Of a stretch of DNA of 64,000 nucleotides, positions 449 through 54,523 are shown piece by piece; the first letter of the stretch is position 1; each line of letters begins with the position of its first letter. The stretch spans positions 6,634 through 70,633 of the forward strand of contig PFAG01000014.1 of assembly GCA_002773755.1 (NCBI GenBank), in the 5' to 3' direction. This DNA is from Candidatus Colwellbacteria bacterium CG10_big_fil_rev_8_21_14_0_10_41_28. GTDB taxonomy: Bacteria > Patescibacteriota > Minisyncoccia > UBA6257 > Colwellbacteraceae. The notes under the pieces are model-generated. The model saw only the letters and a list, made by a program, of their open reading frames with translations, was not told where the DNA came from and did not search any database. The translations under genes were made by a program, and so were the position numbers.

Positions 449-523
449 ATTGACACTCTCCCAATAATGATTAGTATGTAAAGTCCACTGGAAGGTCCAG
501 GGGGAGTACATTGGGAGGAAGCG

Positions 524-694
524 TTGAATGACTTCGAGGAGCAGGAGCTCCGCAAGGACAAAGGCAGAAGGCATCGCCCCGCCTCAAAGGTTCTGAACCC
601 AGATTTCTATCTGGGAGATGACACCCCAGATGATCAGGAGATGGCGCAGTCTCATTCCGAGAGCATCAGTTCTGATCTGGAATCCGCGGAGTAG
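524..694 (+). CDS. candidate small acidic protein (56 aa, TTG start) in GC-rich island
   Basis: GGGAGG 5 nt upstream of TTG; 56 codons, very acidic/hydrophilic product; no homology recognised; alternatively region is ncRNA/leader. Confidence 0.25.
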   Translation: MNDFEEQELRKDKGRRHRPASKVLNPDFYLGDDTPDDQEMAQSHSESISSDLESAE

Positions 695-708
695 TCGCTC
701 ACTTCGAA

Positions 709-751
709 GGGCCTCGTTTTGGAATTTCCAAAGCGAGGCCTTTCTTTTTTT
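709..751 (+). terminator. intrinsic terminator (long GC stem GGGCCTCG..CGAGGCC followed by T-run)
   Basis: Inverted repeat GGCCTCGTTTTGG / CCAAAGCGAGGCC then TTTCTTTTTTT. Confidence 0.55.
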
Positions 752-768
752 GATACTATTTATTTTAA

Positions 769-2043
769 GTGCTTATACACGAAAAAGTTTTTTATGGAGG
801 GGTATTCTTTATATTAGGAGTGTTCGGGGCAGCCTTTGATATAAGCTTTTTGATATCAGTATCCCTTATGACTATTGCAGTCTTCTTACTTAAGGCAGAT
901 TTTAGATTTCGCTTAATATTAATACTTTTGTTTATCTTAGGTTCTTTTTATCTAAACTTTTATGAAAGCCTGAATAAAGTCAGAGTTGATTCTAGAGCAG
1001 AAGAATTAACGGGGACTATAATCTCAAAACCAGAATATAGATTAGAATATTCTCTCATAGAGGTTGAACTGGAAGATCCAAACAGTGGAGTAGTTAGAGT
1101 ATATCTTGAGCCAGGAAAATCTTTCAGATATGGAGATAAAGTTTCTATAGAGGGAGAGCTTACAACAACCAGTAGGGGAAACACTATAATATCTTTTCCT
1201 AAAAACATAATAAAAATCGAACCAGCTCAAAGAACTGTTAGAGGAACCCTCTTTTATATTAGAGATAGTCTTGTTTATAACTTAGAAAAGGTTTTGCCTG
1301 CTTCTAAGTCATCTTTAGCTGCGGGGATTTTGATTGGAGAAAGAACGGGTTTTACAAAAGAGTTTGAGGAATCTATGAGCGGGAGTGGAACTACTCACAT
1401 AGTGGCTCTCTCTGGATATAATGTTGCTGTAATTGTAGTAATACTTTCTTCCATATTCGGATATCTTTTAAATAGAAGGTGGGCTTTCTATGCTAGCCTC
1501 ATGGCTGTTCCACTTTTTGTAATCATGACTGGAGCAGAGCCGTCCGTGGTCAGGGCTGCTATTATGGGTCTCGTGCTTGTGTCAGCAGAGTATCTAGGCA
1601 GACAATATAGCTTTAAGAATATCTTAGTGCTAACTGCCCTAGCTATGCTTATATACAACCCCACCTTAATTATCAGCCTTAGCTTCCAACTGTCCTTCGC
1701 TGCTCTACTGGGGATCGTATACATATATCCTTGGTTGAGCGAAAAGTTTAATATATCTCAAGAAGGCTTTCTCTCTTGGAGAAAGAATGCTCTTCAAACC
1801 TTTTCTGCTCAGCTTGCTGTTACTCCCGTAATTCTTTTAGGAGTCGGCAAGATATCCCTCACTTCTCTTTTCGCAAACACGTTAATTCTTGAATTTATCC
1901 CCCTAACCATGCTCTTGAGTTTCATGGTGGCTACTATCGGATTTATATCTTTTCCAGTTTCTCAAGTAATCGGTTGGGGACTTAATCTATTATTAAGCTA
2001 TGAAGTATTCATTATTAATTTTTTTGGTTCTCTTTGGACTTAA
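769..2043 (+). CDS. comEC: ComEC/Rec2 DNA internalisation channel, N-terminal part (DUF4131-like OB region + competence domain)
   Basis: Polytopic membrane protein with ComEC competence-domain motifs (GERTGF..SGTTHIVALSGYNV..GAEPSVVRAAIMG). Confidence 0.75.
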   Translation: MLIHEKVFYGGVFFILGVFGAAFDISFLISVSLMTIAVFLLKADFRFRLILILLFILGSFYLNFYESLNKVRVDSRAEELTGTIISKPEYRLEYSLIEVELEDPNSGVVRVYLEPGKSFRYGDKVSIEGELTTTSRGNTIISFPKNIIKIEPAQRTVRGTLFYIRDSLVYNLEKVLPASKSSLAAGILIGERTGFTKEFEESMSGSGTTHIVALSGYNVAVIVVILSSIFGYLLNRRWAFYASLMAVPLFVIMTGAEPSVVRAAIMGLVLVSAEYLGRQYSFKNILVLTALAMLIYNPTLIISLSFQLSFAALLGIVYIYPWLSEKFNISQEGFLSWRKNALQTFSAQLAVTPVILLGVGKISLTSLFANTLILEFIPLTMLLSFMVATIGFISFPVSQVIGWGLNLLLSYEVFIINFFGSLWT

Positions 2044-2839
2044 TCTATTTGCTTGGAATCAGATACTCTATCCAGAGAATACAGATAACTTGAGGATTCA
2101 CATACTTGATGTGGGACAAGGGGATAGTCAGCTGATAGAGCTTCCTGGAGGAGTTCAAATATTAAGTGATGCCGGTCCGGGAAAAGAAGTTCTATTTGAG
2201 CTAGATAAAATTATTCCTCCGACAGATAGGTATATTGACCTACTCTTCATTTCACATCCTCAGGTAGACCATTTTGGAGGATTTACAGACGTTATAGATT
2301 CATATGATATCGGTCTAATAGTCTATTCAGGCATTGAGGGGAATAGTGACGCTTGGCAAGAATTTTCAGACAAGGTTGCGCAAAAAGGAATTCCTGTTGC
2401 GCACCTTAGTGCTCGGGATAAGATTCAATACAAAGATTCGCGTATAGACATCCTTTCCCCTGAAGACGAGCCGTATGGTGGGTTGAATGATAACTCGTTA
2501 GTCTTCCTCTTGGATTCAGAAGGCGCTAAAGCACTTTTTACAGGAGACATCGGTTTTGATGTTGAAAATAGACTTATCGAGAATGATCTGGATATAGATA
2601 TCCTTAAAGTCGCTCATCACGGATCAAGATACTCTAGTGGGTTAGAGTTTCTGAGAAAGGTCACCCCAAGGATATCTTTGATTGGAGTTGGGGATAATAA
2701 TTTTGGTCACCCTCACGGGAATACTCTCGGCAGATTAGTCTCAGTCGGCTCAGAGATATATAGAACAGATATAAATGGTCTCATATCCCTAGACATAGAT
2801 GACGGTATGGTTAAGATCGAAACAGAGAAAATTGAGTAA
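2000..2839 (+). CDS. comEC: ComEC C-terminal metallo-beta-lactamase domain encoded as separate overlapping ORF
   Basis: N-terminal TM then MBL motifs (HILDVGQGDS..HPQVDHFGG..AHHGS); overlaps upstream ORF by 44 nt in another frame. Confidence 0.65.
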   Translation: MKYSLLIFLVLFGLNLFAWNQILYPENTDNLRIHILDVGQGDSQLIELPGGVQILSDAGPGKEVLFELDKIIPPTDRYIDLLFISHPQVDHFGGFTDVIDSYDIGLIVYSGIEGNSDAWQEFSDKVAQKGIPVAHLSARDKIQYKDSRIDILSPEDEPYGGLNDNSLVFLLDSEGAKALFTGDIGFDVENRLIENDLDIDILKVAHHGSRYSSGLEFLRKVTPRISLIGVGDNNFGHPHGNTLGRLVSVGSEIYRTDINGLISLDIDDGMVKIETEKIE

Positions 2840-2873
2840 TCCCAATATTTCTCATATACTTCCTATTACATAA

Positions 2874-4268
2874 ATGAGAGTCTTAATTAAAGAGACACCC
2901 GAGCATATCGGAGAGAAAATAGAGCTAAATGGCTGGGTTGATACTAGGAGAGATCATGGCAAGCTCATTTTTATTGACCTTAGAGACAGGAGTGGGTTGG
3001 TCCAGGTTGTCTTCAACGGAAAGAACCAAGAAGCGTATAAAATAGCAGACTCCTTAAGGCCAGAGTGGGTTATTAAATTAGTTGGTGAAGTAAAAGAAAG
3101 ACCGGATGGTATGAAAAACAATGATCTCCCAACAGGTGGAGTGGAGATCTCTGTTGAGAAAATAGAGGTATTAAATGAATCCGAAACCCCTCCTTTCGAC
3201 ATCCATTCAGATGGATTGGATATCAATGAAGCCCAAAGATTAAAGTATCGATACCTAGATCTCAGAAGGCCAAGATTACAAAGAAACATAAAGTTAAGGT
3301 CTGAGCTTATCCAAAAAGCTAGAGAGATTCTTTTTGAAATGGATTTTACTGAGATAGAGACTCCGCTATTGAGTAAGTCTACTCCAGAGGGTTCTCGAGA
3401 TTTTATAGTGCCATCAAGACTATATCCAGGTAAATTCTTTGCTTTACCACAAAGCCCTCAGCAATATAAGCAACTTTTAATGACAGCTGGTTTTGAAAGA
3501 TATTTCCAGATTGCCAGAGCTATCAGAGACGAAGATTTAAGAGCAGATAGGGGGTTTGAGCATACCCAAATAGATATGGAGTTGAGCTTTGTTGACAGGG
3601 ATCAGTTTATGGCTATCGACGAAGAGCTTATGACCAGGGTTTTTGAGGGTCTTGGGTATAAGATCAAAGAAAAGCCATTCCCTGTTGTTACATACGAAGA
3701 GGCTATGGAAAAGCACGGGGCAGATAAATTCGATCTTCGAGGAGATAAGGATAAAGAGGACGGTGTATTGGCCTTTGCATGGGTTGTGGATTTCCCATTC
3801 TTCGAAAAAGATGATGGTGGTGGTTGGACCTTTACACACAACCCTTTCTCAATGCCAAAAGAAGAGTTTTTGGACGATTTCCTTAAAGGAAAGAATATTG
3901 AGAATATATTAACCACCCAATACGATCTTGTCTGCAATGGACTTGAGGTTGGTGGTGGAAGTATTAGGGCTCATAAACCAGAGATCCTTGAGTCAACCTT
4001 CAAGATTATGGGTTATGACAAAGAGACAATAGACGAGCAATTTGGATACATGCTTGAGGCTTTCAAATATGGAGCGCCTCCACATGGAGGAACGGCTCAC
4101 GGAGTTGAGCGTCTTCTAATGGCAGCAACTGGAGAAGAGTACTTGAGAGAAGTGCAGGCTTTTCCACAGTCTGGCACTGGTCAAACATCCGTAATGAATG
4201 CACCATCAGAAATTAGCAAGAAACAGTTGGAAGAATTGGGAATAGAAATTAAAAAGAAAAAGAAATAA
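2874..4268 (+). CDS. aspS: aspartate--tRNA ligase (short form, apparently lacking GAD insertion)
   Basis: N-terminal OB anticodon-binding domain, class II motifs, FALPQSPQQYKQLLM signature; 464 aa. Confidence 0.85.
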   Translation: MRVLIKETPEHIGEKIELNGWVDTRRDHGKLIFIDLRDRSGLVQVVFNGKNQEAYKIADSLRPEWVIKLVGEVKERPDGMKNNDLPTGGVEISVEKIEVLNESETPPFDIHSDGLDINEAQRLKYRYLDLRRPRLQRNIKLRSELIQKAREILFEMDFTEIETPLLSKSTPEGSRDFIVPSRLYPGKFFALPQSPQQYKQLLMTAGFERYFQIARAIRDEDLRADRGFEHTQIDMELSFVDRDQFMAIDEELMTRVFEGLGYKIKEKPFPVVTYEEAMEKHGADKFDLRGDKDKEDGVLAFAWVVDFPFFEKDDGGGWTFTHNPFSMPKEEFLDDFLKGKNIENILTTQYDLVCNGLEVGGGSIRAHKPEILESTFKIMGYDKETIDEQFGYMLEAFKYGAPPHGGTAHGVERLLMAATGEEYLREVQAFPQSGTGQTSVMNAPSEISKKQLEELGIEIKKKKK

Positions 4269-4270
4269 AC

Positions 4271-4873
4271 ATGGCAGATAAAAAAGAAAGAACACTGGTT
4301 GTTATAAAACCAGACGGAGTACAGAGAAGCTTAATAGGGGAGATTGTAAAGCGTTTTGAAAGAACCGGTCTTAAATTAGTTGGAGTTAAGATGTTTGTTC
4401 CAAAGGAAGATTTTGTTGAGGCTCATTATACCCTAGACCCAAACTGGAAAATGAATAATGGCACCAAGGTTATCCAAGCCGCTAAAGATAAGGGAATTAA
4501 ACCAAGAACAGAAGATCCAATTGAACAGGCTGATTTTGTATTGGGAACACTCAAGAAGTATTTAACTTCCGGTCCAGTCATAGCAATGGTCTGGGAAGGA
4601 CTTCACGCAGTCAAGATTGTCAGGAAGATTGTTGGCGGCACAGAACCACTAACATCTGATGTCGGAACAATCAGAGGAGACTTTGTTCTTGATTCATACC
4701 AGAAAGGAGATGAAGACAATAGGTCTGTTAGAAATTTGATCCACGCCTCTGGCTCAACTGAAGAAGCAGATATGGAAATAAAACACTGGTTTGAAGATTT
4801 TGAGCTCGTGAACTACAGATTAGTCCAAGAGGCAATCCTCTACGATGTAAATCTAGATGGAATTTTGGAGTAG
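4271..4873 (+). CDS. ndk: nucleoside diphosphate kinase (with internal insertion)
   Basis: N-terminus ERTLVVIKPDGVQRSLIGEIV..; NLIHASGS active-site region; 200 aa is longer than typical. Confidence 0.8.
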   Translation: MADKKERTLVVIKPDGVQRSLIGEIVKRFERTGLKLVGVKMFVPKEDFVEAHYTLDPNWKMNNGTKVIQAAKDKGIKPRTEDPIEQADFVLGTLKKYLTSGPVIAMVWEGLHAVKIVRKIVGGTEPLTSDVGTIRGDFVLDSYQKGDEDNRSVRNLIHASGSTEEADMEIKHWFEDFELVNYRLVQEAILYDVNLDGILE

Positions 4874-5124
4874 TTTCCACAATCTATTGATAGAATAAAT
4901 AAACTACTATAGATATAAAAATATGGATTTAAGAATAAATGGTCTGTTTAATTTTGTGCTCTTTACCCATCTCTTTACTAGGAGGTTAGTTTTTATCAAT
5001 AGGCAAATCTAAGAAGATAAATCCAAACTAAAGCCGACCTCCGTTCAAAGAAGAGGCCAGTTTTAGTTTGGGGAAATGTCTTCCTCAAGGCAGTACATAT
5101 ACAACCGATAGGGAGGTGAATAAC

Positions 5125-5373
5125 TTGGCGGTCAGAGTCAAAATTAAAAAAGATGGTGTAATGGTTCCCTGTCCAGTAAACGGACAGAAGATGATTCCCT
5201 TCGATAAGAGATGGTCTTCTGGACCAGTCACCATGATCATTATTCAGGGGAAGAAGGGCCGTCTTACGCTCCGAGTGGAACACACCAACACAGGCACCCT
5301 TATGTGTTCTGAAAAAGTACAGATCAACGAAACATACATAATCGGTCTCTGGGCCATCAATAAGAGCAGTTAG
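5125..5373 (+). CDS. hypothetical small protein (GC-rich island, start uncertain TTG/ATG)
   Basis: GGGAGGTG 6 nt before TTG at 5125; stop TAG overlaps SD of next ORF (coupling); no homology recognised. Confidence 0.35.
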   Translation: MAVRVKIKKDGVMVPCPVNGQKMIPFDKRWSSGPVTMIIIQGKKGRLTLRVEHTNTGTLMCSEKVQINETYIIGLWAINKSS

Positions 5374-5383
5374 GAGGGGCAAC

Positions 5384-5653
5384 ATGAGTATCGATGAAAG
5401 GAGTAGTCGAGAGCAGCAACGGTTGTTTCTGCTCGCAACCCACTACCAAAATAGGTATGGATCAGCAGAAATCGCAAAGGCAATCAGAGCCGAACCGGGT
5501 AGCGAAGAATTCACCCATTTCATGCAGCAAGAATTGGGAGTTATCGCCCCAAGAGTGACGAAGGCGGATACTCTCGAGGTTCAGAGACAACTTCGCGAGT
5601 GGAATAATTTTGGTCAGAGATCATTTGAGAAAAAAGAAAAAGAAAGGGAGTGA
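5384..5653 (+). CDS. hypothetical protein, 89 aa
   Basis: Strong SD GGAGGGG 6 nt upstream of ATG; helical hydrophilic product; followed by terminator. Confidence 0.5.
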   Translation: MSIDERSSREQQRLFLLATHYQNRYGSAEIAKAIRAEPGSEEFTHFMQQELGVIAPRVTKADTLEVQRQLREWNNFGQRSFEKKEKERE

Positions 5654-5664
5654 TATCGCTCAAC

Positions 5665-5694
5665 AAGGGGCATCAAGATCTGGTGCCCCTTTTA
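5665..5694 (+). terminator. intrinsic terminator GGGGCA..TGCCCC + TTTT
   Basis: Hairpin AAGGGGCA-TCAAGATCTGG-TGCCCCTT followed by TTTT. Confidence 0.5.
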
Positions 5695-5821
5695 CATTTT
5701 CTGGTATAATAAAAATGTTCCGCTCTTGGTACCGGATCAAATACTTTTTACGGGGATTTCTATATCATTTGGTCCCTTGGGATTAAATTGCGATCTCCCA
5801 CCTGGTTATCGCCGGGTTGCT

Positions 5822-5875
5822 AATGCGCGGAACATAAGAGAACCGCCCTTCGGGGCGGTTTTCTTATGTTTCTAA
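5822..5875. terminator. long near-perfect hairpin (18-bp stem, TTCG loop) downstream of rpmB; likely bidirectional terminator
   Basis: AACATAAGAGAACCGCCC TTCG GGGCGGTTTTCTTATGTT; U-tracts on both sides. Confidence 0.55.
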
Positions 5876-5890
5876 TCCTACTTAACCTAT

Positions 5891-6082
5891 CTAATTAACA
5901 GCCTTTTTGGCTAAAGTCTTAATACACTGTGTGCAGGCAACAATCTTCTTGCCCTCTAGGTCAGTGGTCTTTTGTAGGTTTGGATATTTTCTTACTTGTG
6001 GGGTTGGGTTGTAGTTGCCTCTCAACTTATGCCTCTTTCCAGCCATCTTTGATCCCTTGCCACAAATTGAACATTGCTTCAT
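5891..6082 (-). CDS. rpmB: 50S ribosomal protein L28
   Basis: MKQCSICGKG..RGNYNPT..PNLQK..CTQC (L28 C4 zinc-ribbon pattern); start chosen at second Met (track ORF extends to 6115). Confidence 0.7.
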   Translation of the reverse strand: MKQCSICGKGSKMAGKRHKLRGNYNPTPQVRKYPNLQKTTDLEGKKIVACTQCIKTLAKKAVN

Positions 6083-6093
6083 AGTATCCACAT

Positions 6094-6744
6094 ATGGATA
6101 GCATAGTGATTGCAATATTTCAACTAGTGGTTTTGTTATTTTCGGTGATAGTTCACGAAGTTTCTCATGGGTTAGCCGCTCTAAAGTTGGGAGATGATAC
6201 GGCCAAGAGATTAGGGAGATTAACCCTTAATCCAATTCCTCATTTAGATCCATTCGGCTCTTTGATACTTCCAGCTCTACTCTTCTTAACCAGTTCTCCG
6301 TTTATGATCGGTTGGGCAAAACCAGTTCCATACAATCCGGGTAGGCTATATAAAGATTTTAAATATGGTCCGCTTAAGGTTGCCCTAGCTGGACCTGCTT
6401 CGAATCTTATCCTGGCTATCATCTTTGCTATCCCAGCGAGATTACTGGTTGGGGTTTTGGATCCAGTCCTAATTGGATTTATGGGAATAGTTGTATTTAT
6501 CAACGTTCTACTGGCTCTATTTAACCTAGTCCCAATCCCACCTCTAGACGGGTCAAATATATTGACCATTCTTTTACCAGAGAAATACTCGAATATGATT
6601 CAAAGTGTTGGTATCTGGGGAATATTTATAGTTATATTCCTCCTATCTATGTTCTCACGCGTGCTTTTCTCAGGAGTTCTTAACCTTTCGGCCATAATGG
6701 CGGGGGAGGATGTCATCATTCAAGCATTTAGAATCCTCAGTTAG
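6094..6744 (+). CDS. site-2 protease family (peptidase M50) membrane metalloprotease
   Basis: HEVSHG (HExxH) within first TM, multiple TM helices, LDG motif (PIPPLDGS). Confidence 0.6.
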   Translation: MDSIVIAIFQLVVLLFSVIVHEVSHGLAALKLGDDTAKRLGRLTLNPIPHLDPFGSLILPALLFLTSSPFMIGWAKPVPYNPGRLYKDFKYGPLKVALAGPASNLILAIIFAIPARLLVGVLDPVLIGFMGIVVFINVLLALFNLVPIPPLDGSNILTILLPEKYSNMIQSVGIWGIFIVIFLLSMFSRVLFSGVLNLSAIMAGEDVIIQAFRILS

Positions 6745-6745
6745 A

Positions 6746-6775
6746 TTGACACAAATAAAGCTTGTTTGTTATATT
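6746..6775 (+). promoter_or_regulatory. candidate promoter of rpsL operon (TTGACA-18-TATATT) followed by leader hairpin
   Basis: TTGACA at 6746, TATATT at 6770; leader contains CCCGCC..GCGGGGG stem. Confidence 0.4.
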
Positions 6776-6830
6776 TAGCCTCGCTAACGTTAAGTCCCGC
6801 CTATAAAAAGCGGGGGTTAGCTATGTTTAT

Positions 6831-7717: not shown

Positions 7718-7722
7718 AACAC

Positions 7723-36420: not shown

Positions 36421-37491
36421 ATGAATTACCTCATCAGAGTCAATCTTGATATTGATCCAGACAAGACTAAAAATAACCCACGCTTCAAAGAGGTGGTCGA
36501 AGTAATCGATGGTTTTGTTAACCAATCCGATAAGGTTATTCTTCTAGCCCATAGGGGCAGGCCAAAAGGAGTTCAAAAGAAACTATCTCTCGAACCATTC
36601 ACTGATAAAATAAAAAATGCTACAGGTCAAAATATTAAGTTCTTCGGTGGTTTTGAGTTTAAAGAGATACGAAGGGAAATAGAGAAAGGTAGTGAAAGGG
36701 TGTATCTCCTCGAGAATTTAAGATTCTTAAATGGTGAAGTCAAAAACAGTAAAGGGTTAGCAAAGAAGCTTGCATCTCTAGGAGATGAATATATAAATGA
36801 TGATTTCGGAACAAGTCACAGAGCCCACGCCTCAATCTCAGCAATAACAAAATATCTTCCTAGTCAGATCGGTCCTCACTTCAAAGAAGAGATCAGCTTT
36901 CTTAAATCCTTTACAGAGAAACCGCTTAGACCACTCATTCTAGTTGTTGGTGGAGCAAAATCCGAGGACAAATTAGCTGTCGTTGAAAGTCTATTGGACA
37001 ATGTGGACAAAGTTATTCTAGGAGGTGGCCCAGCCAACACGCTTCTCAAAGCAAGCGGGGTTGATGTTGGAGGCTCTATATATGATCCAAAGTTAGCTAA
37101 AAATATGGGTTGGCTTATTAATCATCCTAAAGTATCTCTTCCAATAGACTGGAAAGAAAACAGAGGAAGAATTCTTGATGTCGGCCCAGATACAATAAAG
37201 ATGCACACCAAAATATTGGAAGAGGCTAACTCTGTAATCTGGAGTGGCCCAATCGGTTTTTTTGAAAAAGAAAAATTTAGTGCAGGCACAGAAAATATTA
37301 TCGACTCTCTTACAAAAATAAATCCACCGATTTCTTTAGTCGGAGGAGGGGATACTGTCGCAAGTCTCAATCTACTAAGCTCTAAGAAGCTCCCCGAAGA
37401 ACTTCACATTTCAACTGGAGGGAGTGCTATGCTAACCTACCTAGCAGGCAAAGAGCTTCCAGCTCTTACAGCTCTAGACCAAAATGTATAA
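36421..37491 (+). CDS. pgk: phosphoglycerate kinase
   Basis: PGK motifs incl. RAHAS and C-terminal GGGD..ST.GGA. Confidence 0.85.
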   Translation: MNYLIRVNLDIDPDKTKNNPRFKEVVEVIDGFVNQSDKVILLAHRGRPKGVQKKLSLEPFTDKIKNATGQNIKFFGGFEFKEIRREIEKGSERVYLLENLRFLNGEVKNSKGLAKKLASLGDEYINDDFGTSHRAHASISAITKYLPSQIGPHFKEEISFLKSFTEKPLRPLILVVGGAKSEDKLAVVESLLDNVDKVILGGGPANTLLKASGVDVGGSIYDPKLAKNMGWLINHPKVSLPIDWKENRGRILDVGPDTIKMHTKILEEANSVIWSGPIGFFEKEKFSAGTENIIDSLTKINPPISLVGGGDTVASLNLLSSKKLPEELHISTGGSAMLTYLAGKELPALTALDQNV

Positions 37492-38444: not shown

Positions 38445-38484
38445 AAGTTAAGAGTCCCCACAGCGATTTCTTGCTGTGGGGACT
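38441..38484 (-). terminator. hairpin AGTCCCCACAGC-GATTTCTT-GCTGTGGGGACT downstream of minus-strand small ORF
   Basis: 12-bp perfect stem; on minus strand followed by CTTAACTTTTAT. Confidence 0.45.
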
Positions 38485-38520
38485 CAGAATACAAGGAGAG
38501 ACGAACTCTCCGGCTTGAGG

Positions 38521-38652: not shown

Positions 38653-38852
38653 TGATCTACCTCCCTCTGAATCATTCCTGGTGACTGCCAGGTCGAGCCC
38701 ATTGTCTCGGTTGAGACGAGCTTTTCTACGCACCAAATTTGTTGATATGCAGGAAAGCTCATCTCAAATACTGAACCTCTATGGAGTCAAAGAACTTACT
38801 AGAAATAGTGCAACATTCCTGAGTAGATGTCAAAAATAGAGGCTAATTCTAT

Positions 38853-43848: not shown

Positions 43849-45096
43849 ATGGACACTAAGTCTATCACTCACGATATTACCTATCACCCCAATAAAAGGA
43901 TGGATCTTTTTCGGGCCCTTGCCGTAGCTGAACAGGAAGCCATCTTCGAACACCTCTCTCCCCATGTACGTCAGAGCATTTTAGTTAACCTCAAGGACGG
44001 TGAGATGATTGATCTATTGGACCAAATGGATCTACAGCAAGCAGAGAATACTCTGGCTGTTCTAAAAGATGAGCGACGCAGGAAGAAGTTGATTAATAGG
44101 GTCAAAAGTGAGCTAAAAGAAAAGGCAGAGTATTTTTTACGATTCCACCCCAAAGCAGCAATTTCACTTCTAAATTTCAACTACCTCCTTCTTGATGGTG
44201 GCACTAACATTAGCCATGCAGCAGATGCTATAGAAGAGCACTATAAGGAGATCGGCAAACTCCCCGAAGTCTTAGTCCACGAGGACGGCAAGCTAGTTGG
44301 AGAGATTCCACCATCAGCTCTTATTCGTGAAAGCAACAACAAACTCGTTAAAAACTTTGTGAATCCAGTAAAGACCATCTCTTATCAGGCAGAGATTCAA
44401 GAGATTGCCGATCTTTTCAATAAAACCAAGCACAGCAAGCTGGCCGTCCTAGACAGAGATGGAAGTGTCATCGGAATTATATACTCAGATGATGCCCTCG
44501 CTTTAATAGGGGATAGGTCAGCCAGATTTTTATACGACTTTGCTGGTGTTGCTGATGTGGAGCGTTCTTTTGATAGTGTGGGAAGTAAGGTAAAGAATCG
44601 CTACAAGTGGCTGATTATAAACCTAGGGACTGCTTTTTTGGCAGCATCTGTAGTGGGACTATTCGAAAATACCCTTAGTCAGTTGGTAGTGCTCGCTATA
44701 TATATGCCTGTTGTAGCGGGTATGGGAGGTAACGCGGCAACTCAAACATTGGCCATCATCGTGCGAGGCATAACAATTGGAGAGATAAGCCTAAAAAACA
44801 GCCTACCCGCTATATCAAGAGAGGTTGGAGCTGGATTAATAAATGGTGCTATCAATGGTTTAATAGTGGCCTTGGTCGCCACCTTCTGGAACGGGAGCGT
44901 CCTTTTGGGGCTTGTCCTAGGAGTTGCAATGATTGTGAATCTTGTTATCGCAGGCTTTTTCGGTGCTCTCATCCCTCTTGCCATGAAGGCTTTAGGAAAA
45001 GATCCAGCAACCTCAGCCACCATCTTCATAACTACAGCTACTGATGTTTTTGGATTTCTAGCTTTCCTAGGGTTAGCAACCATAGTTTTATTGTAA
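43849..45096 (+). CDS. mgtE: magnesium transporter MgtE
   Basis: MgtE N-domain, CBS pair, C-terminal TM domain with GGNAATQ motif. Confidence 0.85.
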   Translation: MDTKSITHDITYHPNKRMDLFRALAVAEQEAIFEHLSPHVRQSILVNLKDGEMIDLLDQMDLQQAENTLAVLKDERRRKKLINRVKSELKEKAEYFLRFHPKAAISLLNFNYLLLDGGTNISHAADAIEEHYKEIGKLPEVLVHEDGKLVGEIPPSALIRESNNKLVKNFVNPVKTISYQAEIQEIADLFNKTKHSKLAVLDRDGSVIGIIYSDDALALIGDRSARFLYDFAGVADVERSFDSVGSKVKNRYKWLIINLGTAFLAASVVGLFENTLSQLVVLAIYMPVVAGMGGNAATQTLAIIVRGITIGEISLKNSLPAISREVGAGLINGAINGLIVALVATFWNGSVLLGLVLGVAMIVNLVIAGFFGALIPLAMKALGKDPATSATIFITTATDVFGFLAFLGLATIVLL

Positions 45097-45182
45097 TTTC
45101 ATCAAAGAATATAGCTAAATAAGAGAACTCCTGATATAGTTTATTGCTCATGCCTCTAGTGCATGACTTTTTTTATAAAAAC

Positions 45183-46946: not shown

Positions 46947-46952
46947 AAACCC

Positions 46953-47060
46953 TTGACATATATATAGCAGTTGCTATAATACACTCGTTCATTAAAGACT
47001 CCGGTCTTTGATGGACATATGAAGAAATCGCCTCCGGGCGATTTTTTCACGTCTATAGAT
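46953..47060 (+). repeat. 108-bp module copy 1: consensus promoter (TTGACA-16-TATAAT) + ~60-nt hairpin RNA + intrinsic terminator
   Basis: 103/108 identical to 48715..48822; -35 46953-58, -10 46975-80, terminator AATCGCC-TCCGG-GCGATT + T6 ending 47047. Confidence 0.75.
46987..47048 (+). ncRNA. candidate small RNA (copy 1) with two stem-loops exposing CUCCGG / CCUCCGGG
   Basis: Predicted from promoter and terminator; hairpin 1 AAAGAC-UCCG-GUCUUU, hairpin 2 is the terminator. Confidence 0.45.
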
Positions 47061-47068
47061 CTCAGTTT

Positions 47069-47965: not shown

Positions 47966-48041
47966 CAACCAAATTCTATCACAAACAGTTGTATAGATAA
48001 TATTTTGTATAAGAACACGCACTCCCTTATAATAAAGACAG

Positions 48042-48431
48042 ATGAAGGGATATATAGACAATATAGAAAAAGTCACTAAGGAAAATAACGCGTATAGAAA
48101 AGTTCTATATACGGGTAGATACAGTCAGCTAGTTGTAATGAGTCTTAAGCCAGGAGAAGAAATTGGTAATGAGGTTCATGGCCTAGACCAATTTATACGA
48201 ATAGAGCAGGGGACTGCTAAAGTAATTTTTAACAATAAAGATGAGCATGAAGTATCGGATGACTGGGCGATAGTTATTCCAGCCACAACCTGGCATAACG
48301 TAATTAATATTGGTGATAATGATTTAAAGCTCTATTCAATCTACTCACCCCCAGAGCATAAAGAAGGGACTGTTCACGAGAACAAAGAAGATGAACAAGA
48401 GGAGCACTTCGACGGAGAAACTACAGAATAG
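48042..48431 (+). CDS. cupin domain protein
   Basis: Cupin motifs G(X)5HXH-like (GNEVHGLDQFIRIEQG..), acidic tail. Confidence 0.55.
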   Translation: MKGYIDNIEKVTKENNAYRKVLYTGRYSQLVVMSLKPGEEIGNEVHGLDQFIRIEQGTAKVIFNNKDEHEVSDDWAIVIPATTWHNVINIGDNDLKLYSIYSPPEHKEGTVHENKEDEQEEHFDGETTE

Positions 48432-48436
48432 CTAAA

Positions 48437-48718
48437 ATGATGAAATTCTTATGGGTTTTAGTTGGATCGCTAATGCTCATCGTCATGGGCCTATATCTCA
48501 TGCCCTCAAAAACATCCGCTCCAGTAACTCCATATATGGACTTTGATTTTGGAAGTAAGATTGTATATACAACCGATCTCCAAACACCAAAAGAAGCTCT
48601 TATAGAACATTGCGACTTGAGAGGAGGAGTATTTAATGAGTGTGGCAGTATATGTGAGCCGGATGTATTTACTTGCGCCTCAGTATGCGCCTATACATGC
48701 GAGGGAATAGGGGGTTGA
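48437..48718 (+). CDS. small secreted/membrane-anchored Cys-rich protein (93 aa, 6 Cys in last 40 aa)
   Basis: N-terminal hydrophobic segment, C-terminal CxxxC-rich region; stop codon TGA lies inside the -35 of repeat copy 2. Confidence 0.45.
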   Translation: MMKFLWVLVGSLMLIVMGLYLMPSKTSAPVTPYMDFDFGSKIVYTTDLQTPKEALIEHCDLRGGVFNECGSICEPDVFTCASVCAYTCEGIGG

Positions 48719-48822
48719 CATATATATAATAATTGCTATAATATACTCGTTCATTAAAGACTCCGGTTTTTGATGGACATATGAAGAAATCGCCTCCGGG
48801 CGATTTTTTCACGTCTATAGAT
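48715..48822 (+). repeat. 108-bp module copy 2 (promoter + small RNA + terminator)
   Basis: Same architecture as 46953..47060; differences confined to promoter spacer, TSS region and one stem position (C->U keeps G-U pair). Confidence 0.75.
48749..48810 (+). ncRNA. candidate small RNA (copy 2)
   Basis: As copy 1. Confidence 0.45.
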
Positions 48823-48849
48823 TTATAAAACACATAGCCAAACGTGATT

Positions 48850-48885
48850 CAGCCCTGCTAATAGATTTCTCTAGAAGCAGGGCTG
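48850..48885. other. 10-bp perfect hairpin CAGCCCTGCT..AGCAGGGCTG with GATTTCT in loop, 24 nt downstream of minus-strand small ORF
   Basis: Inverted repeat seen directly; loop shares GATTTCT with hairpin at 38453..38484. Confidence 0.4.
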
Positions 48886-48911
48886 TTAGGTTGATGGCTC
48901 ATTCTCTTTGG

Positions 48912-49022
48912 TCACCTGCTACTGATCCTCTCGTAGAGGTATGCGATGGCAACTACTGCCAAGAGCAGAGTCAGCCCAGTCGCATACGAGGCCGGTGGTC
49001 TGGTCGCCAGAGTGAAGAACAT
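48912..49022 (-). CDS. 36-aa small membrane peptide (MFFTLATRPPASYATGLTLLLAVVAIAYLYERISSR)
   Basis: GGAGGAG 4-6 nt upstream of ATG; TM helix + charged tail; antisense to a weaker plus-strand ORF from the track. Confidence 0.35.
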   Translation of the reverse strand: MFFTLATRPPASYATGLTLLLAVVAIAYLYERISSR

Positions 49023-49167
49023 CAGACTCCTCCGATTGTACTGGACATGGGGCTTCCTACTCCCCATCTTAATTTGAAAATACAATTAATTAATACGTTA
49101 GTCAAAAAGAAAAAGTGGATGATATAATTTTCATATGGATGAAGTAGATTTTAAGAATAAGAAATAG

Positions 49168-50280
49168 ATGGATAGAAAGGACTTAATTCAAATAGCAGTA
49201 ATAGTTGGTGTAGCCATACTAGTTACAGTAGGTGTGGTTTCGTTCGTAGCTCTTAGTCAAAAAGAATCAACACCAATCAATCCTATTAATATTGGCTCGC
49301 AATCGAAAGCTGACCTATACACCCCAGCGATAGATATATCTTCACCGGATGGATTCATTAATACTGATCCAATTAACATAAGTGATCTAGTAGCCGACAG
49401 CAAAGTTGTTCTACTCGATATATGGACATACTCCTGCATCAACTGCCAGAGAACTCTTCCATATCTTAATGCTTGGCATGAAGAATATGCTGATGACGGA
49501 TTGGTAATAATAGGTCTTCACACACCTGAATTTGAATTTGAAAAAGATATAGCGAATGTTAGAAGGGCTGTAGAAAAATATGGTATAGAATATCCAGTTG
49601 TCCTAGACAACGACTATTCAACATGGAATGCATATGGAAATAGATATTGGCCACGTAAATATCTAATCGATATAGATGGATACGTTGTATATGATCACAT
49701 AGGAGAAGGGGGTTACGAAGAAACAGAAAAGGCCATCCAAGCTGCTCTAGCAGAAAGAGCCAAGAGATTAGGAGAGGAACTGGATGAAATGAGTGGAGCT
49801 AAGGTAGAAAATGCAGAAACAGTTGATCCAAGAACAGTTAAGACTCCAGAAACATATATTGGATACTTAAGAGTAAGTAACATGGCTAATCTTCCATCAG
49901 AAGAGTGCTTTGATTCAAGCTGTCAGCTCGATGCTCCAGATAGACTATCTCTCAATGATTTTGCTCTGGATGGTGTTTGGAAAATAGGTTCGGAGGGAGC
50001 AACCCTAGAAAGCACTACGGGTTCAATATTTATTAAGTTCTCGGCCAATAAGGCAAATCTAGTACTAACATCAGAAACATCTGTTCTGGGCCAAATCTAT
50101 TTAGATGGAGAATTAGTGGGCGAAGCTAGTAGTGGTTCAGACGTAGTGTCTGGAACAATTAAGGTAATGGATAATGATCTATATAATCTCATAGACCTAA
50201 GAGGGGAGCCTGGAGAACATCTTCTTGAGATCAGATTTCTTGAACCTGGAGTCTCAGCCTTTGCCTTTACTTTCGGATAA
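49168..50280 (+). CDS. membrane-anchored thioredoxin-fold (TlpA/redoxin family) protein with extra C-terminal domain
   Basis: N-terminal TM; redoxin region with CxxC (SCINCQ); ~170-aa C-terminal beta-rich domain of unknown function. Confidence 0.7.
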   Translation: MDRKDLIQIAVIVGVAILVTVGVVSFVALSQKESTPINPINIGSQSKADLYTPAIDISSPDGFINTDPINISDLVADSKVVLLDIWTYSCINCQRTLPYLNAWHEEYADDGLVIIGLHTPEFEFEKDIANVRRAVEKYGIEYPVVLDNDYSTWNAYGNRYWPRKYLIDIDGYVVYDHIGEGGYEETEKAIQAALAERAKRLGEELDEMSGAKVENAETVDPRTVKTPETYIGYLRVSNMANLPSEECFDSSCQLDAPDRLSLNDFALDGVWKIGSEGATLESTTGSIFIKFSANKANLVLTSETSVLGQIYLDGELVGEASSGSDVVSGTIKVMDNDLYNLIDLRGEPGEHLLEIRFLEPGVSAFAFTFG

Positions 50281-50282
50281 AG

Positions 50283-51128
50283 CTAGTTTAGAGAAATAGG
50301 TTTTTTCCCTTCAACTTGTATCTCTTCTAATACGAGCTTGATACCGTCTTTCTTGGCATCTAATATTTTTGTTCTCTTGCCATCCATAAATGTATAAACT
50401 CCTGGCTCAGGATTTAGTGCCCTTATTTTCCTTAATATGCTTTCAGTCAACCTGTCATCTCCTATAAGAGCATTCTCTAAATCTTTCTCTTTAATAAAGG
50501 CATCATCTGTTTTAAAAAAACCAGAATACGTTGCTTCTGTGTGGTTTTGACTAACTGGATGCAAGGAACCATCTATATATTTAGGTATCTCTTCTAGACA
50601 AAGCTCTATGGCTACATCGATTATCTTATCCGTAAGTTTTTTTAAATTATCTTTGCCTATAAGCACCTTTTTGGAGGCAATAATTGGACCGTTATCCATC
50701 TTTTCGTCTAGAAGATAAAGGGTAACTCCAGTATGAGCTTTCCCATCCAGTATAGCTGTTCTAATAGGGGATGGGCCTCTCAGCTCAGGTAAGAGTGATG
50801 GGTGAATCCCAATAATACCCTTGGGGAAGATATCAATAACCTCTTTTGGGATTATCTTGTTATAGGCTAGAACTAATCCAAACTCATAATCTCCAAATTC
50901 TTCTTTCGCTAAGCTCGATAATTCTTTCTTATCTTTTGGTTGATAGACCTTTGTGTCAAACTTATTGTCGAGAATGAACTTCTTAGTAGACGGAGGAGCA
51001 ATAACTCTATCTCTACCAACTGGCCTATCTGGATTACAAACCAAAGCCCCAGGAACTATATCTTTTTCAACAAGTCCTCTTAAAACAGCACTGGCTATAT
51101 CGGGGGTTCCAAAGAATACGAATTTCAT
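50283..51128 (-). CDS. fmt: methionyl-tRNA formyltransferase
   Basis: Formyltransferase N-domain (HPSLLP..RG) + C-terminal domain. Confidence 0.8.
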   Translation of the reverse strand: MKFVFFGTPDIASAVLRGLVEKDIVPGALVCNPDRPVGRDRVIAPPSTKKFILDNKFDTKVYQPKDKKELSSLAKEEFGDYEFGLVLAYNKIIPKEVIDIFPKGIIGIHPSLLPELRGPSPIRTAILDGKAHTGVTLYLLDEKMDNGPIIASKKVLIGKDNLKKLTDKIIDVAIELCLEEIPKYIDGSLHPVSQNHTEATYSGFFKTDDAFIKEKDLENALIGDDRLTESILRKIRALNPEPGVYTFMDGKRTKILDAKKDGIKLVLEEIQVEGKKPISLN

Positions 51129-51129
51129 T

Positions 51130-51615
51130 TTAAGAATTATGTAGTTCAGCTCCCTTAGCTAGTCTGTCTATAAACAGATGTCCATTGAGATGGTCAACCT
51201 CATGCTGAAAGATAACAGCCAGCATTCCCCAAGCCTTCACCTTAACTTGTTTTCCACTCTTATTTTGAGCAATCAAAGTTATTTTGGCTAATCTCTCTGT
51301 TAATCCAAAATTTCCAGGGATACTAAGACAACCTTCTGCTGTTTCTTCAACCTCATCGCTAGAAGATTTCTCTATCTTGGGATTAAAAAACACATAGAAC
51401 TTTCCCTCCCATTGGGCTACAAAAACACTAGCGTCTAACCCGACCTGGTTTGCGGCAAGGCCAATACCATCTGCATCATTCATCGTCTTTCTCATCTGTT
51501 TTATCAGATCATCTATCTCTTTCTTGGATAGACTATCAAAATCAAAAGGTTTAACCTTCTTTCTTAAAAACTTTTCTTCTTCTTTATTTTTTACCTTTAG
51601 AATCTTCTTCATCAC
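51130..51615 (-). CDS. def: peptide deformylase
   Basis: GCLSIPG, QHEVDHLNG motifs. Confidence 0.85.
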   Translation of the reverse strand: MMKKILKVKNKEEEKFLRKKVKPFDFDSLSKKEIDDLIKQMRKTMNDADGIGLAANQVGLDASVFVAQWEGKFYVFFNPKIEKSSSDEVEETAEGCLSIPGNFGLTERLAKITLIAQNKSGKQVKVKAWGMLAVIFQHEVDHLNGHLFIDRLAKGAELHNS

Positions 51616-51871
51616 TGTATAGAACCTTCATAAAGTATGCTCCTTTATTTTCTACATTCTCTCTTTCGGCTATCGATTTAGCTAGTCTAAGCAGTTTATC
51701 TTTTGAATACTCTTTGGCAAGTTTCATATATAAAGATTTATGAGAGTCGTCTTGGAGTATCTCGGCAAGCTCAAGGCCTACCAACTGATGCTCTGAATAA
51801 ACCTTAGAATCTTTAGAGCGTTTCTTAAGTTCTGCTATGTAATCTGGGACTGCATTCATATCAATTGCCAT
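51584..51871 (-). CDS. hypothetical protein (95 aa)
   Basis: ORF overlapping def start by 32 nt; no motifs. Confidence 0.35.
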   Translation of the reverse strand: MAIDMNAVPDYIAELKKRSKDSKVYSEHQLVGLELAEILQDDSHKSLYMKLAKEYSKDKLLRLAKSIAERENVENKGAYFMKVLYSDEEDSKGKK

Positions 51872-51906
51872 TATATCAGATGACGTTTACAATTTAGCAG
51901 TAATAG

Positions 51907-53154
51907 ATGCTTGATAGAAAAGATCATAAGAATATCAAAAACGCTTTTTTTGTTTCAGCCATTATAGTTTCTCTAATCTTGAGTTGGAGTGGCTTCTACT
52001 TTCTCGGTTTAAATACTGGCCTGCAAGAGCCCAAGAATATAAGAATAAACAACGTCTCTGACACAAATCCAGAGGCCAATGTCGGCTCTGTTAGCTTTAA
52101 CACATTCTGGGAAGCTTGGGATAGATTAAAGAGTACCCATCCCGATGCAAATGAGATTGAAGATATAGATCTTCTATATGGAGCTATTAGCGGATTAGCT
52201 GGGACTTTTAATGATCCAAACACTGTCTATTTCAACCCAGGGGACTCGCAAAAGTTCAATGAGGATATAAATGGATCTTTTAGTGGAATAGGCGCTGAAA
52301 TTGGAATGAGAGACGATGTGCTGACGGTTATAGCCCCTCTTAAAAATAGTCCCGCAGAGAGAGCAGGCCTTAGGGCAGGAGATGTAATCGCTGAAATAGA
52401 TGAAAAGGATACATCAGATATGACTGTAGACGATGCGGTTAAATACATCAGGGGTCCATTCGGCACAAAAGTTGTTTTGAAGATATTCAGAGAAGGAGAA
52501 CCTGATCCAATTGATATAACAATCACCAGGGATACTATAAATATCCCAACCATAGAAACTCAAATTCTTGAAGGAGACATTCTTTATATACAACTATATA
52601 ACTTCACAAGTTCATCTCCGCAGCTATTCAGACAGGCACTTCTCGCAAACTCTCTAACTAATTCAAAGGGTTTGATATTAGACTTCAGGAACAATCCAGG
52701 AGGATTTCTTTCAGCAGCCGTTAATATATCCGGTTGGTTTATAGAAAAAGGAGAAACCGTTGTTTCAGAGAAGTTCGGCTCAGGAAGCGAAAGGATCTTA
52801 ACCTCATATGGGAATGCTGCGCTTAAAGAGTTTCCTGTCGTTGTTTTAGTTAACGAAGGATCTGCTTCTGCATCAGAAATTGTTGCGGGAGCTCTTCAGA
52901 CACAAAATGGCACTAAACTAATTGGTCAAACCACCTTTGGAAAAGGAACTGTTCAAGAGCTTCAGGACTTGAGTGATGGCTCTACGCTCAAAATAACCGT
53001 TGCCAACTGGCTTCTTCCAGATGGAACCCTAATTGAGAAGAATGGTATCAAGCCCGACTATGAAGTTGAAATAACAGAAGAAGACTTTTTGGATGGAAAA
53101 GATCCTCAGCTAGAAAAAGCGATAGAGGTATTAAGAGAAGAGATAAACAAATGA
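51907..53154 (+). CDS. ctpA: C-terminal processing protease (S41, PDZ-containing)
   Basis: PDZ domain + S41 catalytic region (GSASASEI.., K in TFGKGT). Confidence 0.8.
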   Translation: MLDRKDHKNIKNAFFVSAIIVSLILSWSGFYFLGLNTGLQEPKNIRINNVSDTNPEANVGSVSFNTFWEAWDRLKSTHPDANEIEDIDLLYGAISGLAGTFNDPNTVYFNPGDSQKFNEDINGSFSGIGAEIGMRDDVLTVIAPLKNSPAERAGLRAGDVIAEIDEKDTSDMTVDDAVKYIRGPFGTKVVLKIFREGEPDPIDITITRDTINIPTIETQILEGDILYIQLYNFTSSSPQLFRQALLANSLTNSKGLILDFRNNPGGFLSAAVNISGWFIEKGETVVSEKFGSGSERILTSYGNAALKEFPVVVLVNEGSASASEIVAGALQTQNGTKLIGQTTFGKGTVQELQDLSDGSTLKITVANWLLPDGTLIEKNGIKPDYEVEITEEDFLDGKDPQLEKAIEVLREEINK

Positions 53155-53603
53155 AAGTAGTCTTACTCGAAAATATAAAACACCTAGGTCAGAAGAATGA
53201 GATTAAAGATGTCTCCATCGGTTATGCTAGAAACTTCTTAATCAAAAGGGGACTAGCCAAACCAGCTGACAAATCTGCAATCAATGAAGTTGAGGAAATC
53301 AATAAGACTTCGTCTGAACAAAAAGAAGTTGTAAAAGGAGCCCTGAAAACTCTCCAAGATGAGACCAAAGAAAATCCAATAAAGATTTCTGTTAAGGCTG
53401 GTAAAAGGGGAGAGGTCTTTGGCTCAGTCAAAGATGTGGATATATTGAATACCATATACAAAAAATTCCCAAAGATAAAAGCTGAAAAGATTAAAGTAGA
53501 TATGAATAAACCCCTAAAAGAGCTAGGGGTTCATGAAATTCAACTTATGAGTGGGGGGAAGACCCTATCAACCGTTAAGATTGAAATAGTCCCCGAGGCT
53601 TAA
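53151..53603 (+). CDS. rplI: 50S ribosomal protein L9
   Basis: [31 protein letters not shown].. L9. Confidence 0.85.
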
Positions 53604-53878
53604 GCAGCTAGCACCTCTACCATCTTGGCGGTACGTTTCTTACCGTCAAACTTAGTCTTGGTCTTATTTTTAAAATTAACCACGCCATCAACAGCGGCGT
53701 ATAAAGTGTCATCGCTACCCTTATTAACATTCTGACCTGGTAGGTACTTTGTTCCTCTTTGTCTAACGATGATTTCACCAGCACCAACTTTTTGACCATC
53801 AAAAAGTTTAACGCCTAAACGTTTTGAAGCTGATTCTCTTAAGTTTTTTGCTGATCCTCCTGCCTTTGTATGTGCCAT
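53600..53878 (-). CDS. rpmA: 50S ribosomal protein L27
   Basis: [38 protein letters not shown]. Confidence 0.9.
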
Positions 53879-53944
53879 AATTCAATACTTCTTATCGGGA
53901 AAAGTATGTATTAAAATATACTTAATGTCAATTTAGATCTACAG

Positions 53945-54073
53945 ATGAAACCCAAACTAAAAATAGCCATATTTATAGTGCTCACAACTCTTTTATCCTT
54001 TGCTATTGGATATATCTTGGGCAACGAAGATAGTAGGGCGCCTATTCTAATAGATGTAGAAAAAACAGAATAA
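53945..54073 (+). CDS. possible 42-aa small membrane protein
   Basis: ATG ORF with one TM helix; no SD; weak. Confidence 0.2.
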   Translation: MKPKLKIAIFIVLTTLLSFAIGYILGNEDSRAPILIDVEKTE

Positions 54074-54112
54074 AACCCTTATCATATTCACGGCACATCA
54101 AGAGGAGGAACT

Positions 54113-54487
54113 TTGCAGAGAGAACTAAAGATCCAATACGACAAGAGTCGGGAAATCCTCTCTTACGAGGTTTTCAATTCAAAAAATGGAAGGATCGTCC
54201 GCAAAGAGTCGATCCCAGCCAAACCTCGACAGGCTCTTCGTTTCATCTCGGGACTTCTCTCCAGTGGAGTGATGAACGTAGATGAGAAGATTTCCTTTTA
54301 CGAGAGGGTCATCAGCCTTTCTCGTGGAGAGAAAATCGACGAAGGGGCCAGGGGAGATGTGGAATACTTCTTTCTTGGAGCCCTAACAAGGATCTCTGAG
54401 TCTGGAGGAGTCTTCTCAAACTGCGACATGTCGATGGCTTTGACCTTGAGGAATAAGCTTGAAGCATTGACCACACCTGCTCGGTAA
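54113..54487 (+). CDS. hypothetical protein (124 aa, TTG start) in GC-rich island
   Basis: GAGGAGG immediately upstream of TTG; stop codon lies in stem of 12-bp perfect hairpin. Confidence 0.45.
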   Translation: MQRELKIQYDKSREILSYEVFNSKNGRIVRKESIPAKPRQALRFISGLLSSGVMNVDEKISFYERVISLSRGEKIDEGARGDVEYFFLGALTRISESGGVFSNCDMSMALTLRNKLEALTTPAR

Positions 54488-54523
54488 TCGGTATCACCAA
54501 TTTGGTATCCCTTACCGAGCAGG
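54476..54523 (+). terminator. 12-bp perfect hairpin CCTGCTCGGTAA..TTACCGAGCAGG overlapping stop codon
   Basis: Inverted repeat seen directly; no strong U-tract, so terminator vs RNA-stability element uncertain. Confidence 0.4.

Follow-up and report, generated by a model that had tools for sequence, protein, structure and literature searches.

The closest described parallel to the elements reported here is offered by phage morons, the original description of which is said to be that of Juhala and Hendrix. Morons are independent transcription units that have spread horizontally (Cumby et al. 2012, PMC3594210). In this work, we analysed a stretch of 64,000 nucleotides (nt; hereafter the window, contig PFAG01000014.1, positions 6,634 to 70,633) from a Candidatus Colwellbacteria bacterium, a member of the Parcubacteria within the Candidate Phyla Radiation (CPR), concentrating on five intergenic patches (islands 1 to 5), all of which share the same layout: a leader with a Shine-Dalgarno (SD) motif, one or two small open reading frames (ORFs) and a 3' hairpin. 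The explanation that we favour, with moderate confidence, is that these patches are independent and self-contained cassettes of orphan small genes, similar to morons and probably acquired horizontally. As in morons, a small ORF closed by a factor-independent terminator, and preceded in islands 1, 4 and 5 by a predicted promoter-like site, is placed between unrelated genes and deviates from them in composition. Unlike morons, the islands are part of a cellular chromosome, that of a CPR bacterium, outside any prophage context and without phage homologues.

ORFan genes and genomic islets provide a second term of comparison, since they share with the islands an atypical G+C content at third codon positions (GC3), an atypical codon adaptation index, the lack of homologues, the short length and the intergenic location. 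Acquired DNA is generally more AT-rich than its host. The islands differ from the ORFan and islet type in being GC-richer than the genome which carries them, and additionally in their initiation signal (SD in the islands, none in the host).

The window has a G+C content of 39.9% (mean 0.399, standard deviation 0.045, in windows of 150 nt) and contains the S12-S7-EF-G-EF-Tu-S10 ribosomal cluster, the RNase P RNA and two tRNAs. The original prediction described the core genes as poor in SD motifs, and a tally over the window agrees with it: among the 72 non-overlapping ORFs of at least 90 amino acids (aa), scored for matches of three or more nucleotides at positions -18 to -3, no SD-like motif is found in 56, a 3-mer is found in eight and a 4-mer in seven. 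GGAGG precedes only one of the 72 long ORFs, which is the ORF of island 5. This pentamer is frequent in the window as a whole (140 occurrences, 83 on the plus and 57 on the minus strand), chiefly within genes. The intergenic DNA of the window (5,516 nt) has 14 occurrences, eight of which are followed by a start codon 3-9 nt downstream, and six of these eight sites open ORFs of 36-124 codons, while the remaining two lead into ORFs of only 1 and 6 codons. The six are exactly the SD-led starts which had been flagged beforehand, with no other intergenic SD-led ORF reaching 36 codons, and all of them could be read directly in the sequence. A GGAGG-type motif is present 4-8 nt before the start codon in every case (4-6 nt when the distance is taken from the motif quoted below for each gene).

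The native genes begin in other ways. A TATAAT-like box ends 5-11 nt before the start codon in about 10 of 31 native genes that come first in their operon (examples are found at 36421, 39363, 43849, 48042, 60593 and, on the minus strand, at 62229-63653), and A-rich sequence precedes the start of internal genes. The position of these -10 boxes implies that leaderless mRNAs are probably widespread in this CPR genome, which would make the leadered, SD-bearing layout of the islands exceptional here. A comparable situation is known from Bacteroidota, which have kept the anti-SD but rarely make use of it, and in which rpsU is one of the few SD-led genes. In both cases a few strong SDs stand amid a bulk of SD-less genes; nevertheless, genes of the rpsU type are conserved ribosomal or regulatory genes of native composition, whereas those of the islands are orphans with a foreign-looking one.

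No other stretches of the window free of long ORFs and RNA genes are as large as the five gaps, between housekeeping genes, which contain the islands (320, 1017, 442, 449 and 488 nt). In the order of the islands, these gaps lie at the junctions mnmA/comEC, ndk/rpmB, rnhA/rnpB, a 93-aa gene/a thioredoxin-like gene, and rpmA/the gene of a membrane protein with a CPHC motif (54562-55728). Island 1, on the plus strand, begins directly after the stop codon of mnmA (448) with a predicted promoter-like site, TTGACA-16-TAGTAT (450-477; 10 of 12 consensus matches), followed by the SD GGGAGG (513-518), a TTG-started ORF encoding an acidic protein of 56 aa (524-694; net charge -8) and, 12 nt past the stop codon, an intrinsic terminator with an 18-pair stem and a T-run (706-752). 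A single-nucleotide polymorphism (SNP) between strains falls within this terminator (732, A to G), where the pair is retained as G-U. Island 2, also on the plus strand, is the only one with two genes. Upstream of its first SD there is a leader hairpin with arms of 19 nt (5023-5071); gene 1 has the SD GGGAGGTG (5111-5118) and a TTG-started ORF encoding a basic protein of 82 aa (5125-5373), for which an alternative SD-less start at 5068 would give 101 aa (the gene callers are divided between the two lengths). The SD of gene 2, GGAGGGG (5373-5379), overlaps the stop codon of gene 1 and leads into an ATG-started ORF of 89 aa (5384-5653; PIR98436.1, hypothetical protein), which is followed, 12 nt past its stop codon, by an intrinsic terminator with 11 pairs and a T-run (5665-5700; z = -5.5).

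Islands 3 and 4 are read from the minus strand. In island 3, the SD GGGAGG (38660-38665) precedes an ATG-started ORF of 43 aa (38653 down to 38522), behind which there is a hairpin of 6 pairs (38495-38511) and then another with 13 perfect pairs (38452-38485) and a T-rich tail. Island 4 has a predicted promoter-like site, TTGACT-17-TATTTT (49077-49105; 9 of 12 consensus matches), the SD GGAGGAG (49027-49033), an ATG-started ORF of 36 aa (49022 down to 48912) and a 3' hairpin formed by a 10-bp perfect stem and an inner stem, without an immediate T-run (48850-48885). Both peptides are of single-pass membrane type with a basic C-terminal tail, the Kyte-Doolittle maximum over 19 residues being 2.52 in the 43-aa peptide (residues 6-24) and 1.88 in the 36-aa peptide (residues 11-29); the other four products (acidic 56 aa, basic 82 aa, helical 89 aa and the one of 124 aa) are soluble. 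Island 5 returns to the plus strand and has a predicted promoter-like site, TAGAAA-17-TATCAT (54057-54085; 9 of 12 consensus matches), the SD GAGGAGG (54102-54108), a TTG-started ORF of 124 aa (54113-54487; PIR98501.1, hypothetical protein) and a 3' hairpin with a 12-bp outer and a 7-bp inner stem, which overlaps the stop codon (54476-54523; z = -6.6). In islands 2 and 3 the promoter scan gave no clear promoter-like site. Of the exact sequences of the six ORFs, two, including the 43-aa ORF of island 3, are missing from the public protein collection, and one further sequence is recorded solely in an ENA metagenome assembly.

The unusually long, near-perfect stems that had been noticed in these patches are real (18, 11, 13, 10 and 12+7 pairs in islands 1 to 5, respectively) and belong to the strongest hairpins of the window. 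All of them, with 10-18 pairs, are found 0-25 nt past the stop codon of an ORF, and in three of the five units a T-run or T-rich tail lies behind them. Given this placement and these T-runs, they are terminator hairpins at the 3' ends, closing each unit, and not a separate feature of the islands.

The composition of the islands sets them apart from the native genes, to different degrees depending on the measure. Regarding overall G+C, the description of the patches as GC-rich holds clearly for islands 1, 3 and 4, with peaks of 0.51-0.53 in windows of 150 nt (the only other peaks of at least 0.51 in the window are the RNase P RNA and the tRNA-Glu region), but the enrichment is modest in islands 2 and 5, which reach merely 0.45-0.49. 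The contrast in codon usage with the neighbouring genes, which had also been proposed, is found in GC3, in the codon adaptation index, in the choice of arginine codons and in the Arg/Lys ratio. The GC3 of the island ORFs ranges from 0.46 to 0.70 (0.63-0.65 for the 56-aa, 0.52-0.53 for the 82-aa, 0.46 for the 89-aa, 0.70 for the 43-aa, 0.68 for the 36-aa and 0.54 for the 124-aa ORF), compared with 0.331±0.037 in 75 native genes, for which the maxima are 0.42 among the long genes and 0.47 in rpmB. Taken together, the island ORFs have G+C at 57% of their third positions (33% in native genes), and CGN triplets account for 45% of their arginine codons (19% in native genes). In codon adaptation index, all six fall below the lowest native value. 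The shift extends to the amino acids themselves, since Arg/(Arg+Lys) is 0.59 in the island ORFs and 0.36 in the native ones. Neither tuf nor fusA is among the eight highest GC3 values, which places both below 0.372. The rpmB gene (5891-6082, minus strand), with the top native GC3, encodes a ribosomal protein L28 of the CxxC type and lies below the 90-aa ORF filter.

Concerning the coding capacity of the islands, the three longest ORFs exceed the lengths expected from dinucleotide shuffles (p = 0.006 for 124 aa, 0.022 for 89 aa and 0.03 for 82 aa), and a Fisher combination of the six length p-values, in which the two short SD-led ORFs outside the islands were included with p = 1, gives approximately 0.004 by our own computation. 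Additionally, a period-3 pattern in G+C is significant in the 56-aa ORF (p = 0.003, chi-squared test) and in the 43-aa ORF (p = 0.0097). The 36-aa ORF passes no single coding test (p = 0.14 for period 3 and 0.12 for length). The 89-aa protein was modelled by AlphaFold2 from its single sequence as a three-helix fold, moderately confident (predicted local distance difference test, pLDDT, 79), and searches of PDB and BFVD with this model gave no similar fold at E<1. Based on these tests, the ORFs of 82, 89 and 124 aa are very probably genes, those of 56 and 43 aa are probably genes, and for the ORF of 36 aa this status is plausible only by analogy with the others.

The homology searches show the 124-aa and 89-aa products to be orphans. 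For the 124-aa protein no relative was found among 5.8 billion clusters, and a HMMER search against 1.84 billion representatives returned, besides itself, one remote match to a 5,180-aa repeat protein, which was rejected as spurious (it is the sum of ten matches of at most 5.7 bits each). The 89-aa protein found its own cluster alone among the 5.8 billion. None of the six products has a match in Pfam, PHROG, NCBIfam or PADLOC, nor by tblastn in the phage and plasmid collections; the three longer ones have no match among PDB sequences, and the products of 101, 89 and 124 aa have none among viral contigs. The islands had been regarded as a family, and this term is adequate as far as the common architecture and composition are concerned, but there is no similarity between them in DNA or protein.

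Islands 1, 2 and 5 recur with their flanks, nearly identical (99.7-100%), in contigs which were assembled independently from other samples, and this rules out an assembly artefact. Across these contigs of the same population there are no SNPs within the island ORFs. Exact look-ups of S12, L27 and other proteins retrieved the same population only, at 99.7-100% identity, and a metagenome scan with AsnRS gave a single match, at 44%.

The distinct GC3, codon usage and Arg/Lys usage of the islands, together with the orphan status of the 124-aa and 89-aa products, make piecemeal horizontal acquisition the most likely origin, and lateral acquisition of the cassettes is, on these grounds, probable. 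The donors would be unsampled phages, plasmids or hosts, moderately GC-rich and using SD-dependent initiation, from which the cassettes would have been acquired one by one. In the resulting genome, native genes would be translated from leaderless or A-rich SD-less mRNAs, while the cassettes would produce leadered, GC-rich mRNAs dependent on pairing between SD and anti-SD for the recruitment of ribosomes, and their own terminators would insulate them from the adjoining operons. We infer from the sequence that the cassettes are transcribed from the predicted promoters, that they are translated and that they are foreign.

Several observations weigh against the reading of the islands as acquired cassettes. 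Taken singly, the lengths of the three shortest ORFs fit chance (p = 0.21 for 56 aa, 0.26 for 43 aa and 0.12 for 36 aa), and for the 124-aa protein AlphaFold2 gave a poor model (pLDDT 54). The promoter scan found sites no more frequently than in shuffled sequence. With a GC3 of 0.47 in the native small gene rpmB, the value of 0.46 in the 89-aa ORF is unexceptional. In the phage, plasmid and viral-contig collections and among the protein clusters no donor or homologue was found, and it is by their composition that the islands look foreign. The lateral acquisition that had been proposed is compatible with this composition, with the two orphan products and with units that look like small protein-coding genes. 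The closest related genome found, retrieved with MgtE as query, has an MgtE of 65% identity and shows no synteny at the islands, and these contain neither mobility genes nor convincing target-site duplications. Finally, the anti-SD motif of the 16S rRNA is undetectable in about half of the Parcubacteria (Tsurumaki et al. 2022, PMC9297842); if this lineage is also without it, the SDs of the islands would be vestigial and could not act as proposed. The window and 17 kb of fetched extensions contain no 16S gene.

The main rival to the acquisition of cassettes is a native origin, in which the islands would be lineage-specific small genes with leadered, SD-dependent expression, forming a small SD-dependent regulon and owing their high G+C and GC3 to selection for mRNA stability or for regulated initiation. 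Orphan small proteins are frequent in CPR genomes. In agreement with a native origin, the islands have no donor and no mobility signature and are invariant between strains, the GC3 of rpmB is likewise raised, and in the minimum-free-energy folds the SD and the start codon are found within local hairpins, which suggests regulated initiation. However, selection on mRNA structure is a poor explanation for a shift that also involves amino-acid usage (both the Arg/Lys ratio and the choice of CGN codons for arginine), the transcript bodies are no more structured than shuffled sequences, and tuf and fusA, which are highly expressed, show no such rise in GC3. All considered, we see native small genes as a possible but rather doubtful explanation. 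A further reading takes the SD as a tag in a genome whose own genes have given up SD-dependent initiation. It would mark either a tiny specialised regulon of small proteins (including the two toxin-like membrane peptides), with the cassettes as the sole mRNAs to recruit ribosomes by SD/anti-SD pairing, or, if the anti-SD is absent, fresh imports from a host or phage that uses SDs; this we regard as unlikely.

Slightly less probable still is that islands 3 and 4 are loci similar to type I toxin-antitoxin systems, in which a strongly SD-led and structured mRNA for a small hydrophobic membrane peptide would be repressed by a small RNA, either antisense or encoded nearby. The likeness to type I toxins (Hok, Fst, TxpA and BsrG) is found in the two hydrophobic single-pass peptides of 36-43 aa, both with one strong transmembrane segment and a basic tail, in the SD-led mRNA, in the strong terminal hairpin and in the pairing of the SD within a local hairpin in the minimum-free-energy folds. 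Close to island 4 there is even a candidate small RNA of 62 nt with a perfect promoter, convergent to the island gene and about 40 nt from its 3' hairpin. This small RNA, however, shows no overlap with the 36-aa ORF and no specific complementarity; its CUCCGG motifs form closed UNCG tetraloops, and the predicted duplex energies do not clearly exceed the effect of the G+C content of the targets. At island 3 there is no candidate antisense promoter or small RNA. Unlike type I toxins, moreover, the peptides have no match to a toxin family below E = 0.01 (Pfam, NCBIfam and PADLOC) and lack both an established antisense RNA and multiple copies, the lengths of the two ORFs singly fit chance, and the other four products are soluble.

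The candidate small RNA belongs to a direct repeat of 108 nt, the two copies of which (46953-47060 and 48715-48822) are 95% identical. Both carry an extended sigma-70 promoter with a perfect match to the consensus, TTGACA-16-TG-TATAAT (12 of 12), after which the predicted transcript of about 62 nt forms two hairpins with C(UCCG)G tetraloops, the second being a terminator with a T-run. The copies are placed directly behind the stop codons of BipA and of a 93-aa gene, flanking the segment with VanY, a cupin and this 93-aa gene, and the repeat, for which Rfam has no match, is a candidate duplicated small-RNA gene. The idea that the 62-nt RNA might act as an anti-SD mimic, targeting the SDs of the islands, was dropped, given that CUCCGG is enclosed in the UNCG tetraloops and that the duplex energies do not clearly surpass the G+C effect.

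Another possibility is that the patches are structured non-coding RNA genes and the SD-led ORFs coincidental. A heuristic that looks for structured RNAs as GC-rich islands in AT-rich genomes is reportedly due to Klein, Misulovin and Eddy (2002), and the patches resemble such islands in being local GC peaks, in a genome of 40% G+C, beside true RNA genes (as mentioned above, the only other peaks of this height are the RNase P RNA and the tRNA-Glu region). The units as a whole also fold better than shuffled sequences (z between -2.9 and -5.1), and a structured GC-rich RNA candidate of 350 nt is found just beyond the window (z -5.2). This excess stability, however, is owed almost wholly to the terminators: once these are removed, the bodies fold like shuffled sequences (z of -1.65, -1.31, -0.81, -0.14 and -0.94, where -0.14 is gene 1 of island 2 and -0.94 island 5), compared with -4.21 for the RNase P RNA of the same window. 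A search of Rfam 15 at E up to 1 gave no matches in the islands, its matches elsewhere being RNase P, the two tRNAs and two weak unrelated ones. Bodies no better folded than shuffles argue against structured-RNA genes, as do the period-3 structure of the G+C and the fact that, of the eight SD-led starts in intergenic DNA, six lead into ORFs which reach the terminator. The units thus look like small protein-coding genes, and we consider RNA genes very unlikely.

Two candidate RNAs and a GC-rich element were observed in the vicinity of the islands and of the window. Between island 2 and rpmB (5703-5864, plus strand), an RNA of about 120 nt comes after the extended -10 box TGGTATAAT; it folds strongly (minimum free energy -62 kcal/mol, z -5.7), is closed by the stem AUGUUCCGC/GCGGAACAU and precedes a bidirectional terminator which also serves rpmB. 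With no match in Rfam, it is a candidate for a small RNA that is not annotated. Directly downstream of tRNA-Glu (59430-59541, minus strand) there is a GC-rich element of about 75 nt, with a long-range stem of about 13 bp, CUCCGUCUGUAUG/CAUAUAGACGGAG, and then a terminator hairpin. The 350-nt candidate is located in a GC-rich patch of the same contig, about 3.5-4.4 kb past the right end of the window (L084 5221-6175), and consists of a non-coding stretch of approximately that length (minimum free energy -135 kcal/mol) with its own terminator, followed by a GC-rich ORF of 150 aa which has no family match and no strong SD. The patch has no Rfam, tRNA or tmRNA match, and the stretch is a candidate large structured RNA.

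The proposal that the islands are a family of small selfish elements, similar to miniature inverted-repeat transposable elements, can be considered effectively refuted: a common architecture, an intergenic location and short AT-rich direct repeats flanking island 1 (10 nt) and island 5 (12 of 13 nt) would fit it, but these repeats are at chance level (by our rough estimate each is expected about 0.3 times in the search region), the islands have no similarity to one another, no additional copies in about 81 kb (the window and its extensions) and no terminal inverted repeats, the only ones found being the internal terminator hairpins.

Other neighbouring genes were noticed in the course of the analysis. 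The MgtE gene (43849-45096) has the highest GC3 among the long genes of the window (0.42), and its best relatives beyond the CPR, in species-representative genomes, are found in DPANN and halophilic archaea (43-52% identity), which suggests that this transporter may have undergone inter-domain transfer. About 1.3-4 kb to the left of the window start (L087 3453-6199), a DUF8128 gene and a gene for a VirD4/TraG-like coupling protein (T4SS-DNA_transf, TrwB_AAD_bind) are located beside efp; these belong to conjugation or DNA-uptake machinery and share their neighbourhood with comEC.

Returning to the proposed acquired cassettes, what has been documented well here is a set of orphan small genes and not a new mechanism, in which the SD contrast, within a CPR genome that is SD-independent, is an interesting twist on known orphan cassettes. 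CPR bacteria are uncultured and have an unusual translation machinery. SD-led orphan cassettes in an SD-less genome would be a simple sequence marker, either of recent import or of a special SD-dependent class of genes, and, if the anti-SD is absent, they would mark in which direction and how recently genes have flowed into a CPR symbiont. Should the pattern prove general, it could be of use in annotating small proteins overlooked by gene callers, as well as in tracing the exchange of genes of CPR symbionts with their hosts or phages.

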